A stretch of 61,923 nucleotides of DNA, filler included, from Bonamia ostreae (taxonomy: Eukaryota): assembly GCA_040357525.1 (NCBI GenBank). It is 26 parts of 26 records of this genome, joined end to end, with 100 filler letters (N's around TTAATTAATTAA, not from the genome) between each part and the next. Parts side by side here need not be neighbours in the genome. Positions count along the whole stretch, not along the records: positions 12,034 to 14,331 come from JBDODL010000915.1; 25 more parts are not named here. One strand, given 5' to 3'. Numbering within the stretch: the stretch's first letter is position 1; each line of letters opens with the position of its first letter. Under the pieces are notes generated by a model. The model ran no database searches, was not told where the DNA came from, and worked only from the letters and a program-made list of their open reading frames with translations. The position numbers were made by a program, and so were the translations under genes. Below are positions 9,370 through 45,264 of this stretch, piece after piece.

Positions 9370-9634
9370 TTATAGATTTTACATATACAATAGTTTTATC
9401 GTTATTTGATAGAATTTACATTTTAGTGATACAAAATAGGATAAAAATTAGATAGTTTGTATACTGAAATACGGTAAATGAGAGGTAAGCAGTTTTTATT
9501 TTAGAAAAGATTGACAACACGTCATTTTAATTATANNNNNNNNNNNNNNNNNNNNNNNNNNNNNNNNNNNNNNNNNNNNTTAATTAATTAANNNNNNNNN
9601 NNNNNNNNNNNNNNNNNNNNNNNNNNNNNNNNNN

Positions 9635-11854
9635 NGACAAAACTAGCGATTTTTAAAGTTGCAAGATTTTAACAAAGAAAAATCAAAAAGCAGTTCTTTG
9701 CAACAATTTCGACATTGATTCTACATACATTACAGACATTGCAAAACTCTGCACAGAAAATCGAGCGGGCACCCGAAAGACGAGCGCATGTACACCGCCT
9801 TGACTTGTACCACCACATCTTCTCCGCGTTCGATTTTGAGTCTGATTTGGGCCCTCAAAACCGGGTTGCTCTTTTCGACGCGCAGCCGAGACACCACTTT
9901 CGAGTCGATTTTGAACTCGACGCGCGCTTCCTTCGAGCGGCAGAGCGGCACGCAAAGTTTTCGATCCAACGCCGCGGCCCACGCAGAGCCGCCCGGGGCG
10001 CACTTCACCTCGACGGCGACTTTCAAGACGGACTTCCCCTCGTTTCGCACTCGGATGGCGCGAGACACGCTCACGCCGAAATACATTTTTGCGAATTCGA
10101 GCGCCGTCGGGAAAACGGAGAGCTTCGGGCGCAGCACTTTTTTGAGCGCGCCGATTTTCGCGCCGATCCGCGCGGCGAAGTCGGCGAGGGCGGCTGGCTC
10201 GAAAGAGCGGAAACGGGCGGCGAAGAGCGCGCAGACGGGTTTGTGGTCGGAGACGCGCACTGCGGAGACGGAATCGTACTCCAAAAGAGAGAGCCGGTTG
10301 GATTTGAAGAGCACACGGTCGCACCAAGCGGGCATTCTGTGATTTAAATTGGACGAACCGCTGTTTTCCGTCTTCAGATTTGTCGTAGTTGGCCAAAGTG
10401 CCGGGAACGAATTTGTAGGTGGGGGCGAAGGCAATTTCGCCTTCGGTGAATTCTGCGAAGACGCTGTTGCGGGAGCGTTCGTTGTTAAGCTGGAATGGCG
10501 GTGAAAATAAAACTTGGTCGTTTTGGGCCAGTTCATTGAGCTCTCCGCGATCGATGAGACTGAAGACGTATCCGAGTTCAGACTCGTTTTTGAGCTGAAG
10601 TCGGTAGTTTAGATCGCCGAACCAGATGACGGTGCTTTAGCGAATTTTTGGTTTAAAATTATTTTTTTGCGCTCGTTAATTTTGCGAAAAAAGCAAAAAG
10701 TTTTTAAACGCAACAATGAAGTTTTTTTATTGAAAAGTTTTGTAACAAAGCAAAAGTTTTTTAAAAGTTTTTTAGCGCAACAAAAAAGTTTTTTTATTGA
10801 AAAGTTTTGTAACAAATCAAAAATTCTTATATTTAAAAGTTTTGTAACAGAGCAAAAAGTTTTTTAAAGTTTTTAAACGTAGCAATAAAGTTCTTTTAAT
10901 TTAAAAGTTTTGTAACAAATCACAAAGTTTTTAAACGCAACAATAAAGTTGTTTTATTTAAAAGTTTTGTAACAAAAGTTTTTTGGCTAAAATTTCGCAG
11001 CAAAATTAAAAACTCGCTGTTGAGCAGAGCACCTCCAATTCGATAATCCCATTTATTAAGTTTGAAGTCGAGTTTTTCCACACTCAAATCTTCACATTAC
11101 AAAGCAAACGGAAATCGCTGTTGCGGTCGTCCACGTTTGTTTTCCCGGAGGCGAAATGCGACGTCACAAAACAAATCGACGCGTCCATCAAATTGAGCCG
11201 CACCGCCACGCTCCCTTTGTTGCCCTTTTATACAAAATTTGCTCGAATCGACAAAACAAGTGTTCTCATCACTCCCAGCGCGACTGTTTTTACTTCGACG
11301 CCTGAAATCTGCCGAGCGACTTCCTTGCGCGCGAAGACGAGCAGAGCGAGTCCCATCATGTTTTTGTCCGCCATTAGCACGAACTCGAGACCACTTTTCC
11401 GCAGACTTTGCTTTATCGCCTCCCTCCACACACGCAGCAGTGGCTCCCACCCGCTCCAAAGCGATGCCGCGATCGACCCCGCGCGCATCTCCACCAGCTC
11501 TTGCAGCCCCACCGCGAACAAGTCCGCGTCGCCGGTGTCGAAAACCGCGCGGAGTTCCTTCGGAGGGCCTTTCCCGGAAGCGTTGAAAGTGACCACTTTT
11601 ATCTTGAGCGTCTTCGGGACGGTAGTCTGTTCCAGTTCGCAGGCGAAAAGAGCGGCGAGATTGTCGGGTGGATTTTCTGTGGAAGGCGGGGGGAGTCCGA
11701 AGGGGTCGTTTTCAGCGGCGATAACTTGTTCGTTTTCGTACAATTCTGTGGCGAGAGCGGAATGTTCCGAAAGGAGGAGACGGACCATTTCGCGATTTCT
11801 GAAGAAAGTCGGCGTGTCTGTGTCGGTTTCAATTAAGGGCTCCGATATGTCCAT
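9635..11854 (-). CDS. OCRL: Inositol polyphosphate 5-phosphatase, OCRL/INPP5B-like (catalytic plus ASH-like region)
   Basis: Motifs AVGLQELVEM, WFGDLNYR, FAPTYKF, PAWCDRVL and SDHKPV, followed by an Ig/ASH-like region ending SSFGCPLDFL. Confidence 0.85.
10690..10985. repeat. Degenerate intronic tandem repeat (core AAAAGTTTTGTAACAAA)
   Basis: Core recurs several times inside an intron of the 5-phosphatase gene. Confidence 0.8.
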
Positions 11855-13365
11855 TTTATGCCGTTTGTTTAAGAAAGTGTCAGTTTTTGTTTGCTTTTTC
11901 CAATTTTAGCGTGTTTTTTGTTAAATATTTGGTNNNNNNNNNNNNNNNNNNNNNNNNNNNNNNNNNNNNNNNNNNNNTTAATTAATTAANNNNNNNNNNN
12001 NNNNNNNNNNNNNNNNNNNNNNNNNNNNNNNNNAAAATAAGTAATTGCGAATTTCGAGTATTATTGTAATTATTTCAAGTTTGGCAGATGTCTACTGTAA
12101 TTTCGATGATAAAGAAATCATGTTATTTCAAAGGCATCTACAATCAAGGAGGTTGGAGTTATGTGACGAGAAAATAAATCTTCGTTGAATTAAAAATTGT
12201 AAAAATTGTCCAAAATTTTTAAAAGCGATTTTTTTCTAAATTATAATTCACCAAAATCGCAGTTATAATATCAATCAAAATCGTCATAAAAATTTTTAAA
12301 ATTGTTATTTTGTCTTTGTCACAATTTGACATAATTGTCGTAATAATATTTGTCATAATTGCCATAATCTTTCTTTTTAAAAGGCGACAGCATTTTAAGC
12401 TACGAGATAATGGTTCGTTGAATTGTAAATCTTCGTTAAATTAAATTACTTCGTTAAACAAAATTTTCGTTGTTATTTCTTTTTAGAATGAGATTTACTT
12501 AACACAATCGTCAGTTTATCTCTCTTTCGTCATCGCCAAATTTATAAAAAAAATTTTAGTCAATAAAGATTTAATCAAATCTCTCGTTAAAATATATTTA
12601 TCCTTTGTAGTTATGTCAACGCTTCGTTTTTGAAGATATTTTTGTAGTTAAATCATTTCTAGATAAGATTTATTACGAAATTTTTGAACTTGATATAATT
12701 TTTTTACGAAATTTTTGGATAAAATTTTTTAAATATTGTAAATTTTGCAAATTTTGGAATGCATCGACCAAAAAATTTAAATTCTTCAATTTTTGGTCGT
12801 CCTCTAACTTCTTCATCCATTAACGGAGTGGTGACAATACTGCAATTTATCTGCATTTTTATTCAAAATATTTCCTCTTCGTTTCGAATAGTTTGAATTT
12901 TCTTCTGTAAACAGAACTTGCTTTACTATCAATTTTTGTAGTTTATTCTGTAGTGGTTTAGAGAATTTTGGAATACAGACATTTGAAACACAAATTTGCA
13001 AAAAATTTAAAACGAAATTTTAACAATTCACAACATATTAATGTAATATATTTTAGTAAGCACGTTTACAATTGCCGAAAATTAAAAAGATTAATGTCAG
13101 TTTTAAAAGCATTGAGAATACCCAAAAGTTTCATTTTAAGATTTAAAAATTGCTCGTTGATGATTAAGAACCGCGTCCCAAATTATTTTGTACGAGGAAA
13201 ACAGTTATTTGAAACATCGCGTCTACAAAATCATCCAAAAAACTAATTTGACTTAATGTTTCGAATCACTGTTTTTCTTCGTCATAATAACTCGGGACAA
13301 GTTTTTTTTCGCAATGTTTAAACATCACAACAGCCGAAATAATGTTCCAAGACATAATTTCAGAT

Positions 13366-13443
13366 AAAAGACAGAACCGAGATTCGAACCCATGCACGCA
13401 CGAATGCGTACACTTAGTCCGTACCACTGAGCTATCACGTTCT
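13366..13443 (-). ncRNA. Pol III-type small RNA, vault-RNA-like
   Basis: Minus strand AGAACGTGA-TAGCTCAGTGGTA (box A)-CGGACTAAGT-GTACGCA TTCG TGCGTGC-ATG-GGTTCGAATC (box B)-TCGGTTCTGTC-TTTT. No anticodon arm or D-stem, but the two ends and boxes A/B can pair as a panhandle. Confidence 0.55.
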
Positions 13444-13839
13444 TTTACTGAAATTTTGCTTTTTGAAGAGTCCTTTTTCTTGAAATTAAAAGCATTCACG
13501 TCATGTTTCATATGGAGAACTTGTTTTTGTTATATGCAAATTTTAGCTTGGTCAATTCCAAGAACCTCATCGCTTCGTCGATGTCGGAAATAGAAGAAAT
13601 CAAAACACGAACCTAATTTAGGATCGATTTTTGTGTTGTTACATGTTTATTGGTTATCTACACGTTCACAAATCTTTTTTACCCAAAAAATTAAATCTTT
13701 ATTAAAATTTATATATAAACACTCGCTAGCTCCTCGATCGTCCATTTAACTGTCCAGGACACTGAAAGGCGTAAATTTATTTTTATGTACATTGTATATC
13801 AAAAAGTTTTAAATTTAAATCCAAATTTATTTTTGATTA

Positions 13840-14331
13840 ATGAAACATCTTTTAATTATTGTTTTTGTTATTGAAGCAAGTTTTGTTCAATATGAAGAGC
13901 CTTATGACGGTTGTTTTAATTTACCCATTTTTCTACTTTCTTGTTACTTTGACATTTTAAAATTTAAAAAATCAAATTAGCACATCCTTGGACATATGGC
14001 TCAGAAATAGAAGCCCAAGACGCTGAAACAGTATGTAACAATATGAACAAAAGGATATGTAACAAAGACGATCTGGAAGCGTTCTACCAACAAAACAGAT
14101 CAATATGCAAAAAAGCATGGGCGTATAACAGAGAGACAAAAGATATTTTCGGACACGTTGTTTCAGTGAACAGTTCTTGTTTTGAAAACGATTTCATCAA
14201 TGGAGTTTTTCCGCAACGTATCTTCACTCAAAGAACATACGATCGATTTTGGTGTCTTATCCCTAAAGAAGATTTTGAAAATACTTTTGGTTTTATTTTA
14301 TTATTACGCGTTTGATGCACAACAACACAAT
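13840..14331 (+). CDS. Secreted protein with Link-module/C-type-lectin-like domain (partial)
   Basis: Signal-like MKHLLIIVFVIEAS, intron 13910-13980, then AETVC..RIC..DL...C..AW...C...YDRFWC. Confidence 0.55.
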
Positions 14332-14490
14332 NNNNNNNNNNNNNNNNNNNNNNNNNNNNNNNNNNNNNNNNNNNNTTAATTAATTAANNNNNNNNNNNNN
14401 NNNNNNNNNNNNNNNNNNNNNNNNNNNNNNNTTCGACTTTTTTTAAATAAAAAATTATTAAAATGATTGAAAACGACAAAAAAAGAAAAT

Positions 14491-16847: not shown

Positions 16848-18889
16848 TTACTGAATATTCGGAACTCCCTGTTGCGCCATTTGCTGCTGATCTGGATTTT
16901 TAGACACACCCGACAAAATGTCATCAATCCGCAACAAAACCGTCGCCGTCTCAAAAGCAGTTTTGATCGCTTGTTGCTTCACCGAAAAAGGTTCGAAAAC
17001 GCCCAGCTCAGAAACATCGCAGACTTCGCCGCTGTCGCCGTCAACTCCCAACAAACTGTCGTTTTCTTCGTGCGCAGACCGAAGCTTTGCGATGACTTGG
17101 GATACATTGGCGCCGGCATTTTCTCCCAATGTTTTCGGAATTATCTCAAGCGCGGAAGCGGCGCACGCAAAAACTCTCGCCGCGGCTTCGCTTTCTTCGC
17201 GCGACTGTTTTCTGAGCACAGTGGACATTGCCATTTCGGAAGCGCCGGCGCCCGGGACGACGCGCGGATCCATTATGATGTTGCGCACGACGCCCATTGC
17301 GTCCGTCAGGTTTCGCTCGATTTCCGCGAGGCCTTCTGAGCTTGACCCTCGCAGAAGAACGCTGCACGCTTTTGGCGAATCGCAGTTTTCAAAGAAACTC
17401 CAATAATCGTCGCCCAATTTTCTTACTTCGAAAAGAGCGCATTTTTTGCCCAAATCGGTTTCTTTCATCGAAGTCGAGTTGCTGCCGACGCGGGCGCCTG
17501 TCGCCATTGCTAGACGGTGGAGATCACTTTTGCGTACGCGGCGGAGAACTGAGACGTTTTTCTGGAGAAGAAAATGCTGAGCGATGTCAGAAACGCCTTT
17601 TTCGCAGATGACGATATCTGGTTCGAGGGCGGTGATGGCTTCACAGAGTTTTCTAATGTGTTCTTCTTCGAGGTCGAGGTATTTTCGCCAGTCCTCGGCT
17701 CTGTTCATTTCGATGTTCGTCTCGCTTTCTGCTTTTTTGTATTCTAACGGGCAATCCAACCTGTTTTGTAAATTTTTGTCGTTTTTGGTTTTGGGACAAT
17801 TTTACAGTTAAATTTTGTTTGGCAATTTGTGATTTGCAGTTGTTTTACAATTTGTGATTTGCCGACTTTTTTTCAACACACAAAAATTAATTTGTGATTT
17901 ACAATTTATTGTTGAGATGACAATTTTGAGATTGTCGACTCGACATTTGCGATTTTTTGGCGATTTTCGCAAAACATAATAAAGTTTTGAATAATTAATG
18001 AATAATTAATGATTCAATTACATGTGAATAATAATTAATGAGACGGAAGAAACATTCTCGCTAAAAATACTATATGGAAAATAACTAAATCTAAAAAGCT
18101 CTTATTAGCAGATATAATCAAAATTTCAAATCCGAAAATAGTTTGGAATGGAGTTGATGAGAAAAGTGATAAAAACAGCATAATGCGTGGATTTTCGATG
18201 CGTCTTCTCATGGCGGCGTGGAGGATATCTTTGTTCAGCATAACGCCCTTCAAAACTCTCGACGAATCTATTTCGCCGCCGGCCACCTTTTCGACTTTGA
18301 CCAGCGCTCTCAGATCGGACGTCCTCTTCCCCGATTCCTCAAAGGAAACAGTTCTGACTGCCTCCACGGCCAGGCGCGGGATCAAGTTTCCGAAACGCGA
18401 AACTTGTTTAGTGCCCAGAGCCGTCACCGCAAAAGACAACAGTTGTTTCGGATCAGTGGGATCCACCTCGCGCGCGCATTTTTTCAGAGCTTGGAGACTT
18501 AGGTCGGCTGCTCGACGATAGGCGCCGACGATAACGGAGGGATGCATTCCGCCGGAAAGCAGAGGGCGGACCGCTTCCATCAGTTCGCCCGCTAAAACGA
18601 CCACCGAAGTGGTTCCGTCTCCAACTTGTTCGTCTTGCGTCCGGCTCAACTCGATCAAACTTTTAGCGGCTGGATGGCGCACTTCAATTTCTCTGAGGAT
18701 GCTAGCTCCGTCGTTTGTGAGGACAACGCTTCCGGTGGGGTCCAAAAGCATTTTGAGCATCGCTTTGGGGCCGAGCGTGGAGCGGACGATGTCGGCGATG
18801 GCCTTCGAGGCGGTGATTATCCCCATCTGCGCCTCTTTGCCCGTTTCTCTTTGCGCGTTTTTGTTGAGAATAAGAATCGGCGCATTCAT
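16848..18889 (-). CDS. CCT3: T-complex protein 1 subunit gamma
   Basis: STLGPKAMLKMLLDP, QDEQVGDGTTSV, and RRRIENPRIMLLDCPLEYKK formed across one 416-nt intron (17761-18176, GTTTTT..CAG); also KACSVLLRG and LLRIDDILSG. Confidence 0.97.
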
Positions 18890-19223
18890 CAAATCGGCTT
18901 TAGTTTTTTGCGTTTAATGGTTAAAATTTAGGATTTTTGTCGAAAAGATCTGATTTGGATTTTTGTCGGCTTTGTGGGATGTCGGCGCCTCAAAAATTCA
19001 ATCTTTCGGGGCTATGTCGTTTTAGCATTTTAACCCTTTCTAGAAATTTTTATTTTTGGTTAAATTTTGATCTTTCACATGTTTCGTTCATTCTTATTCG
19101 TTCATCATTTTATTTTATTTTTTNNNNNNNNNNNNNNNNNNNNNNNNNNNNNNNNNNNNNNNNNNNNTTAATTAATTAANNNNNNNNNNNNNNNNNNNNN
19201 NNNNNNNNNNNNNNNNNNNNNNN

Positions 19224-31060: not shown

Positions 31061-31424
31061 NNNNNNNNNNNNNNNNNNNNNNNNNNNNNNNNNNNNNNNN
31101 NNNNTTAATTAATTAANNNNNNNNNNNNNNNNNNNNNNNNNNNNNNNNNNNNNNNNNNNNGACATATCCTCCAAAACGAAGCGTGACATATCGACAAACG
31201 ATGAAATATAAAATTCAGAAATTTGATCAACTCTGAATTTATTTCATCTTTGTGGGTATGGCCGCGCTTCGTTTTGGCGACTAAAAAAGCTTTGGAATGT
31301 TTGCGCCAACAAATTGCAAATAAAACCAACGAACAAGACGGAGGAGAGGGCCTTAGCCGGTTCAACATAAATGCCAAGTACGTAAACGATGAGTGGATAC
31401 CAAAATATTCATTTTTTAGAAAAT

Positions 31425-34385: not shown

Positions 34386-34761
34386 TGTTTTGCGAAACCG
34401 AAATTAAATATATCGAGTAATCTTAAAAATGAAACTATTACATTGCAATATAACTTTTTTAGAGTTTTACGTAAATTTACGAATTAAATATATGATTTAC
34501 ATGAAAAATTTTATTGCAAATCGTTGTCTAAGAAAAACAACGAAAAGGGCGAAAACGACATTTCTTCGAAACGAAGCGTCGACTTTAATCAAATCTCTCC
34601 ACTTTATATTTCACCTTTTGTGTGCAGTTCGACGCTTAGTTTTCGAAGATATGTCGTTTAGCATTTAAACCAATTCTAGATGAGATTTGATAAAATCTAG
34701 TAAAATAGCTTATACAAATTAGATGTACATAAAACATTAGAAAAATTATATAGAAAATATA

Positions 34762-43912: not shown

Positions 43913-44335
43913 TTATCAAAAAAACAATAATTCGACATTTACTGTTTTCTAATACTTTTATACAAAAATTTTAAGCTCATATTGCAAAACAATATATCGA
44001 CCAAATCTATGAAAACGAGCTTAACCATTTTAATGTAAAAACAATTCAGCACCTTTTAGACCACCAACAAATTTCTAAAGCTCTTCTTTTTATAATTTTT
44101 CAAAATTAGCTCTCCCTCATATAATTTACTAAAGCTCGGTTTCAAAGCTTTAAACCCGAAACCGATTTCAGTCCCAATCCCGTTTTAACTGTTGCCACCA
44201 ACTCATCTATAATTCCCTCCACAACAAATTTTATTTCTTTTCATAATTTCCTAAAGCTAAGCTCGGAGCGAGCTTTGCCATATAATATGTTGTAACTGAA
44301 CACTGAAATTTTATCACACGGCCATAAACTGTTTA

Positions 44336-45264
44336 ATGGTTTCTAAAATTTCCAAACTGACCAAAAGCGACATTTACGCTGAACTGCAGAAGCGGCAACT
44401 CTCGCAACGAGAGATCGCCGCCAAATTTCAGGTCAGCAGAATGACGGTCTTCCGCATCAACCGTCAGCTCCGGCTCGCCACCGGAATGAAGAAGTACGTT
44501 TTCCTTCTAATCCATAGACCGTCAAGCGGGTCGCAGCGTGGCCTCCCCGGAAAAAGGCGCTGCCCAAAAATAAAGATGGCCGTTGCTCTTCGAACGGGGT
44601 CATCAAGATGGCCATCCCGCCGCCGCCTCCGCCCAAGAACGCCGGTCGAAAGACGATCAAACAGTACGAGACGCTCGACTTCCTCGTGCACCGCTGTTTC
44701 CTCCGCGCGAGCCCGTTCGTGCGCATCGACACGAAAGTTCTGAAGAAACTGAGTCTCGCCGTGGGGCAGCGCCTCGAGTTGGCGCGCTTCAAGGCGTCCA
44801 ACAACTGGATCGCCAATTTCAAGAAGCGGTTCGGCATCCGCCTGCGCGACCTGAACCGCGCAGGGCGCACGAAGGCGGAGCGCGCCGACTCGCCGACTTG
44901 GGAAGGGCTCAGCCCGGACGAGGTGGTGGACAAGTCGGTGGACAACGTTTTTAGGGAGTTCGGTCTCGGGCGCGGCGCGGCGAGTCTGATCAAGATGGAG
45001 AAGTTGCGTCAGACGGCGCCGGGGCTGGTGAAGAGGGAGAGCGGGATTGTGGTGAAGAACGAGAAGGGGCGGTTGCCGTTTGAGTCGCAGTACGGCAAGC
45101 AGAACGGGGGCCCGAGGAGGAAATTTAGGCGAGCGAGCCAGTCCTTGGAAGAGATGTTCAAGGATTTCGAGCAGGCCGTCGCCAGCTCTGCGCCGGCGCT
45201 GGTGAAGCGGTTTGCAAAGTTTAGGAGAGATGTTTATTCTGTCGTAGAGCAATTTGATAAATGA
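44336..45264 (+). CDS. CENP-B/pogo-type tandem HTH DNA-binding protein (~302 aa), no DDE domain recognised
   Basis: HTH LSQREIAAKFQVSRMTV; 20-nt intron 44498-44517 joins it in frame to the Tc5-type HTH FKASNNWIANFKKRFGIR; stop at 45264. Confidence 0.8.

Follow-up and report, generated by a model that had tools for sequence, protein, structure and literature searches.

Families of repeats and pseudogenes that descend from tRNA genes are common, and RNAs of tRNA ancestry may fold otherwise than as a cloverleaf, rodent BC1 RNA with its hairpin fold being an example. Rodent 4.5SI RNA is derived from a tRNA as well (PMC10137851), and its complementary ends are reported to stabilise the RNA and to prolong its life (PMC3440375). 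Vault RNAs, 88-140 nt in length, employ a type-2 Pol III promoter whose boxes A and B are placed inside the RNA (PMC7904556), and the vault RNA of T. brucei is described in connection with TEP1 and three MVP paralogs (PMC12547018).

The locus described here, a short unit on the minus strand of a window of 61,923 nucleotides (the whole stretch of DNA that was analysed), can be set beside each of these systems. With vault RNAs (human vtRNA1-1 to 2-1; T. brucei vtRNA) it has in common the internal boxes A and B of a type-2 promoter, a predicted fold that pairs the box A side (5') with the box B side (3'), a variable centre and a U tail. Like 4.5SI and BC1, it combines tRNA ancestry and internal boxes A and B with a non-cloverleaf fold that has complementary ends, both latter features being present in the unit by prediction; these RNAs are, however, about 100-150 nt long, shown to be expressed and restricted to rodents, whereas the unit is known here from DNA sequence and belongs to an unsampled eukaryote. 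The likeness to the heads of tRNA-derived SINEs extends to the A/B-box region of about 70 nt, the degraded cloverleaf, the many diverged copies with unlike 5' flanks and the common sequence that some copies of the family have beyond the head, yet the unit lacks a body, a tail and a target-site duplication and has its T4 run directly after the head. Genes and pseudogenes of class II tRNA-Leu(AAG), finally, share with the unit the two boxes, the C-U-AAG loop remnant, a hairpin at the place of the variable arm and a length of 75 nt; the unit differs from class II tRNA-Leu in that its D arm is a stub, its anticodon and acceptor stems are mismatched and it goes undetected at normal thresholds. Class II tRNAs are about 8 nt longer than the 75 nt drawn for the unit at relaxed threshold.

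Considering the evidence together, we hold with good confidence that the unit (Table 1) is derived from tRNA-Leu without being a tRNA, that its type-2 Pol III promoter remains intact and a T4 run is present, that it is one of a family and that it is not demonstrably a vault RNA. As regards the nature of the family, we assign a probability of about 0.5 to the reading of the unit as a member of a dispersed pseudo-tRNA family of about 71 nt, originating from class II tRNA-Leu(AAG) and representing a tRNA-derived repeat or pseudogene. Such a family would be of the SINE-head or pseudogene type, perhaps still transcribed and presumably without a dedicated cellular role.

Table 1. Features of the tRNA-derived unit, with positions counted along the window
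Feature	Position	Strand	Basis
Unit as first delimited (78 nt; i1 = 13443, i78 = 13366)	13366..13443	-	sequence
71-nt core common to related units in sequencing runs	13366..13436	-	contig loose ends, aligned records
Box A TAGCTCAGTGGTA, exact, tRNA positions 8-21	13422..13434	-	pattern search
Box B GGTTCGAATC, exact, tRNA positions 52-61	13381..13390	-	pattern search
Central 9-bp hairpin with UUCG loop (i31-39 with i44-52)	13392..13413	-	fold prediction
CTAAG, probable Leu(AAG) anticodon-loop remnant (C32 U33 A34 A35 G36)	13413..13417	-	relaxed ARAGORN drawing; contig loose ends
T4 run, candidate Pol III terminator; family homology stops here	13366..13369	-	sequence, contigs
Flanking inverted repeat, right-hand arm (RNA sense), copy-specific	13353..13368	.	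16 nt, 81% complementary
Flanking inverted repeat, left-hand arm, copy-specific	13443..13458	.	16 nt, 81% complementary

The geometry of a type-2 Pol III promoter is complete in the unit and is joined by the T-run. Box A (TAGCTCAGTGGTA) has its single exact match in the window at this place, two sites being found against 0.30 expected when up to two mismatches are allowed; box B (GGTTCGAATC) is likewise matched exactly only once in the window, and its 10-mer is not rare at one mismatch (4 found against 4.54 expected). The consensus patterns of the two boxes are TRGYNNANNGG and GGTTCRANNC. Searched as a pair separated by 28-58 nt, these degenerate patterns occur together once in the window, at the unit, and any such pair appears in 3 of 300 composition-preserving block shuffles. 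With T8 at i10 and G52 at i54, the boxes are spaced as in a tRNA gene that lacks an intron, and because this spacing is exact, the unit must be tRNA-derived and not a chance match. The minus-strand reading from 13443 to 13366 given in the preliminary description is accurate in each element it named (box A, box B, the hairpin and the CTTTT end at 13366), and the tRNA promoter boxes it claimed are confirmed as two exact boxes at tRNA spacing that form the single A...B pair of the window. The combination of type-2 promoter and T-run occurs in tRNAs and SINEs also and therefore does not discriminate vault RNA. The unit has a G+C content of 50.7%, compared to 27% in the surrounding spacer.

The unit fails as a tRNA. 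ARAGORN at default thresholds, with or without introns, found no tRNA gene in the whole window, and Rfam 15 at gathering scores gave no match for the unit. Searched at E <= 10, Rfam returned eight weak and unrelated matches on 311 nt and two on 98 nt (12.4 and 10.8 bits), with none to tRNA, tRNA-Sec or Vault among them. The earlier statement that the boxes lack a cloverleaf is upheld by both detectors at these settings. The best of the eight matches on 311 nt, to snR47 at 23.1 bits, lies outside the unit; a dicistronic tRNA-snoRNA arrangement, for which this match at E = 2.1 was the sole support, was dropped. Placed in the canonical register, the unit forms 14 of 21 cloverleaf pairs at +9.8 kcal/mol, and cloverleaf-type folds in which the central hairpin serves as a fourth arm reach -5.9 to -7.7 kcal/mol.

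Remnants of a specific tRNA can nevertheless be traced. Run on a 111-nt stretch at 70% of its threshold (-ps70), ARAGORN calls a sub-threshold tRNA-Leu(AAG) of 75 nt with a stub D arm; the relaxed search yields 104 and 60 junk calls when applied to the whole window. The acceptor stem in the drawing has two mismatches and three G.U pairs, the discriminator is T, and the D arm has shrunk to GCU-CAG-UGG. The anticodon arm comprises three standard pairs and one G.A with the loop C-U-A-A-G-U-G, which places a pyrimidine at position 37, and it is followed by a variable region of 13 nt and a T stem with 4 of 5 pairs. As read from the sequence, GGAC would make three of the four D pairs with a D loop lengthened by one base. 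The D-stem partner and the anticodon arm had been called missing: this is correct for detectors at default settings, but remnants of both appear in the GGAC pairs and in the anticodon arm of the relaxed call. The central hairpin occupies the place of the class II variable arm together with part of the anticodon stem, and it directly adjoins the T stem with ATGGG, as a class II variable arm does. A class II tRNA-Ser of Streptococcus (L005) joins its variable arm to an ATGGG T stem in the same way; it is one of four loci from a pattern scan of prokaryote genomes in which the other three were chance matches; among JGI metagenomes the pattern gave four loci, none of the four tRNA-like, and the viral scan gave none. 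The unit may accordingly be described as what appears to be a former class II tRNA-Leu(AAG) gene that lost most of the D arm and gained mismatches in its stems.

In the predicted MFE structure, the 78-nt and 71-nt forms both adopt a rod of -27.6 kcal/mol, with z -3.21 and 1 of 200 shuffles as stable for the former, z -3.68 and 0 of 200 for the latter. The 71-nt rod is predicted to be closed at its first base and to leave UUUU free at the 3' end. The rod is made up of the helices G8AUAG12/C70UGUC74, GGU19-21/AUC61-63 and CGGACU23-28/GGUUCG54-59, the last involving box B, together with the 9-bp central hairpin. This hairpin, GUACGCA-UUCG-UGCGUGC with 7-9 bp and pair probabilities of 0.69-1.0, is the only robust helix and the sole part that the MFE structure shares with the structure drawn originally. 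The helices proposed in that drawing are all legal pairs; jointly, however, they reach -15.9 kcal/mol compared to the -27.6 kcal/mol of the MFE, their pair probabilities do not exceed 0.01 outside the central hairpin, and the model prefers GAUAG/CUGUC, GGU/AUC and CGGACU/GGUUCG as outer helices instead. The more general idea of a box A side paired with a box B side is retained, this being the arrangement preferred in the predicted rod.

Relatives of the unit were sought in contigs from sequencing runs. Seven run entries from five studies contain part of 9600-14300, with none on record as RNA, and the interval 12034-14331 was compared with the contigs of four of them (X1-X4) at a likeness of at least 80%; parts of X3 and X4 without cover were left out of the reading, and X1 or X2 may be the source of the window itself and is to that extent not independent of it. 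Exact contigs confirm the locus (records 5 and 8 of X1, records 13 and 14 of X2). Among the matches listed, which leave aside 238 further records, at least 14 contig records (X1, X3, X4) align only to the unit, over 52-74 nt with 4-12 other letters and no gaps. Related units from the contigs of three studies are 83-93% alike over the 71-nt core. Their 5' flanks are unlike, agreeing (0.52) no more than AT-rich noise would, and the 3' flanks show partial agreement (0.71 over about 30 nt), which implies that some copies share sequence lacking from the copy at 13366-13443. Loose ends occur at 13366 in seven X1 contigs and at 13436 in seven, the median length of the extra sequence being 255 letters, and the homology of the family runs from the closing base of the rod to the last T.

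At position 13397, depths sum to 338.6 in X1 (26-fold the 12.8 of the locus's own contig) and to 296.2 in X2 (30-fold the corresponding 9.83); these sums may include other organisms and are not a copy number, hence they are taken only as pointing to dozens of related units. One relative shows depths of 14.2, 9.77 and 3.5 in X1-X3 and is probably located in the same genome, because these depths match the organism's single-copy DNA. In X4, a run only guessed to be RNA, cover in 13 of 30 bins and a very high summed depth of the unit could reflect RNA, uneven amplification or other organisms. Within the window, neither blastn-short nor nhmmer detected a second copy. Many degenerate genomic copies had been named in the preliminary description as an observation that would refute it, and as far as the contigs show, such copies exist: the units at 83-93% likeness with unlike 5' flanks resemble a SINE-type head dispersed in many diverged copies, in contigs of three studies and at a copy number that is rough.

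The relatives are informative about which parts of the unit persist. CTAAG is kept in both of the two loose-end strings that reach this part, and CGGACT, which pairs with box B, is kept in the loose ends as well, once as CGAACT, which turns a G.U pair into A-U. The relatives vary inside box A, and in one, seen in the loose ends, the central loop has 7 nt. The changes C36>U and G47>A were considered as a compensatory pair and discarded, since in X4 they reside on separate contigs (depths 5222.4 and 2165.7) and do not constitute covariation. The depth peaks at 12188-12264 and 12496-12726 belong to AT-rich low-complexity sequence on which unrelated contigs pile up in four runs, and are not repeats of the unit.

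The repeat or pseudogene reading can be cast into a proposed sequence of events. Collapse of the D arm and weakening of the acceptor, anticodon and T stems would have left boxes A and B and the T4 run intact. TFIIIC would bind the two boxes, TFIIIB would be placed upstream, and Pol III would start about 10 nt before box A and stop in the T-run. The resulting RNA of 75-85 nt, unable to make the L-shaped tRNA, would collapse into the rod. We lean towards a repeat or pseudogene family because the copies are 7-17% diverged, box A included, because useless tRNA remnants persist in them, and because some copies are embedded in a longer shared unit and families of this kind are common. Differences in box A and in the length of the central loop are as expected of decaying copies, and the presence of other repeated long hairpins in the same window favours the reading additionally. 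Counting against it, the copy at 13366-13443 carries neither the 3' extension of other copies nor marks of retroposition (a target-site duplication, an A-rich or LINE-like tail and a body are all lacking), and the bounds of homology, the closing base of the rod and the last T, are as expected of a defined RNA. Among the 45 window ORFs scanned there was no reverse transcriptase or LINE partner. The perfect boxes and the high G+C content within an AT-rich spacer may be fitted by youth of the copy and may also be fitted by constraint.

Constraint leads to the second reading, that of a stand-alone family of functional Pol III genes for a small RNA, recruited from tRNA-Leu, the product being a rod-like RNA, about 71-78 nt long, that has paired ends and carries a U tail; we entertain it tentatively, as a possibility that falls clearly short of an even chance. 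The RNA could be part of an RNP or act as a riboregulator, comparable to 4.5SI, BC1, Y and vault RNAs, or it could be a substrate of Dicer like hairpins driven by Pol III. Such a function would be in accordance with perfect promoter boxes followed by a T-run, with the stability of the predicted 71-nt rod relative to its shuffles, with a homology that coincides with the closing pair and the terminator, with a G+C content far above the spacer and with the missing retroposition marks at this copy. Provided that the partner strand is unchanged, 4 of the 5 one-sided differences that the loose ends reveal in the predicted helices keep a pair (i10 U>C, i11 A>G twice and i25 G>A, as opposed to the pair-breaking i19 G>C). 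In the X2 strain no differences fall in 13379-13443 and 8 fall in 13444-13805, about 1 being expected in the former, so that the comparison is not significant. End complementarity is moreover a feature reported to stabilise 4.5SI (PMC3440375). The lack of an Rfam match and the differences of 7-17% between copies, with variation in box A and loop size, argue in the opposite direction. In its more pointed form, the reading implies a tRNA-Leu gene turned into a multi-gene family of rod-shaped Pol III RNAs of about 71 nt in an unsampled eukaryote, with either a small RNP RNA like vault, Y or 4.5SI RNA or a Pol III-driven precursor of small RNAs having been invented independently, and this would be a somewhat unlikely outcome.

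The proposal of a minimal vault RNA, made originally for this locus, is disfavoured by the absence of a Rfam Vault match at E <= 10 on 98 nt, by a length of 71-78 nt compared to the 88-140 nt of vault RNAs and by the absence of MVP, TEP1 or another vault protein from the 45 window ORFs scanned. A further difference from vault RNA is that the unit is one of many divergent copies and that remnants of tRNA-Leu are clear in the family. Vault RNA proper would hence be a small subset of the functional small-RNA reading, with a very slight probability of its own.

Two further readings are improbable to a similar degree. The unit might belong to a palindromic, MITE-like DNA element, or to a hairpin small-RNA precursor, that encloses the tRNA relic by chance, the flanks extending the stem past the T-run. 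Folded with its flanks over 121 nt, the sequence indeed reaches a predicted -39 kcal/mol (z -5.12, 0 of 200 shuffles as stable), the flanking inverted repeat (Table 1) lengthening the stem; another long hairpin lies next door, and the hairpins at 31171-31290 and 34546-34665 are related to each other. The relatives, however, share 13366-13436 only and lack the flanking arms, a target-site duplication is missing, and the unit shows no likeness to the other hairpins (scores of 14-20 compared to 47 for the related pair). Long hairpins are not rare here: in a window-wide hairpin scan, the unit's own 120-nt stretch ranks about 21st of 7490.

According to the other of the two, the locus would be an exapted chromatin site for TFIIIC and Pol III, a tRNA relic that lies between divergent genes and resembles an ETC or insulator, any RNA from it being incidental. 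The setting is suitable, as the unit is found in an AT-rich spacer of about 2 kb between a minus-strand gene of the inositol-polyphosphate-phosphatase type (exons 9686-10636 and 11231-11905) and a plus-strand ORF at 13968-14312, and perfect preservation is limited to the two boxes; the conserved non-promoter core of the relatives and the stable rod are left unexplained by it. A working though aberrant tRNA-Leu(AAG), as the C32 U33 and AAG anticodon of the 70% ARAGORN drawing might suggest, is close to refuted by the miss at default thresholds and the lack of a tRNA covariance match at E <= 10, by the unusable D arm, the pyrimidine at 37, the two acceptor mismatches and the T discriminator, and by a cloverleaf less favourable than the rod by about 20 kcal/mol.

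Our analysis has significance for annotation in that a unit missed by tRNA finders and Rfam alike is aptly labelled as a tRNA-Leu-derived pseudo-tRNA or Pol III-type repeat, and not as a vault RNA. As things stand, it is an annotation point. If the family were expressed and structurally constrained, it would present a clean case, from a protist lineage about which little is known, of a tRNA gene put to new use as a small RNA with a rod shape, and would offer a handle on Pol III transcription in that lineage.

Regarding the wider window, Pfam matches were obtained for 17 of the 45 ORFs; apart from a Tc5-type HTH, these are all ordinary nuclear housekeeping genes. The exons of CCT gamma (TCP-1) at 16851-18913 on the minus strand show at most 57% identity to any protein in the collection, with named CCT gamma matches of about 50% in fungi, green algae and an oxymonad, and because of this low identity the DNA is assigned to a poorly sampled eukaryotic lineage. 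Masks that recur every ~2.4 kb (e.g., 11934-12033 and 14332-14431) consist of 44 N, TTAATTAATTAA and 44 N; they are non-biological, break ORFs and dominate inverted-repeat scans. A scan for promoters and terminators of bacterial type, which is irrelevant to Pol III, gave no sites.

The second long imperfect hairpin, at 13166-13307, adjoins the unit downstream and has 52-nt arms that are 73% complementary; the fold predicted for the plus strand has -46.8 kcal/mol (z -7.35), that for the minus strand -47.6 kcal/mol (z -5.66). A relationship between it and the unit was rejected as not significant, 35 of 300 shuffles scoring as well. A contig of X4, the run only guessed to be RNA, spans 13063-13358 with one other letter. 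The hairpin contains a box-B-like GTTTCGAATC at 13258-13278 on the plus strand, with a T5 run four bases on; the site is complementary to the box B region of the unit, and no matching box A was seen. Farther away, the hairpins at 31171-31290 and 34546-34665 are very stable (residual z of -6.5 and -4.0 in the window-wide scan) and mutually related, with a local score of 47 compared to 12-20 for unrelated pairs, and they probably represent a MITE-like palindromic repeat family. The block at 44300-45260, with 54-63% G+C and overlapping ORFs on both strands, includes one ORF with a weak match to a Tc5 transposase HTH (E 4.7e-05), and is possibly the remnant of a DNA transposon.
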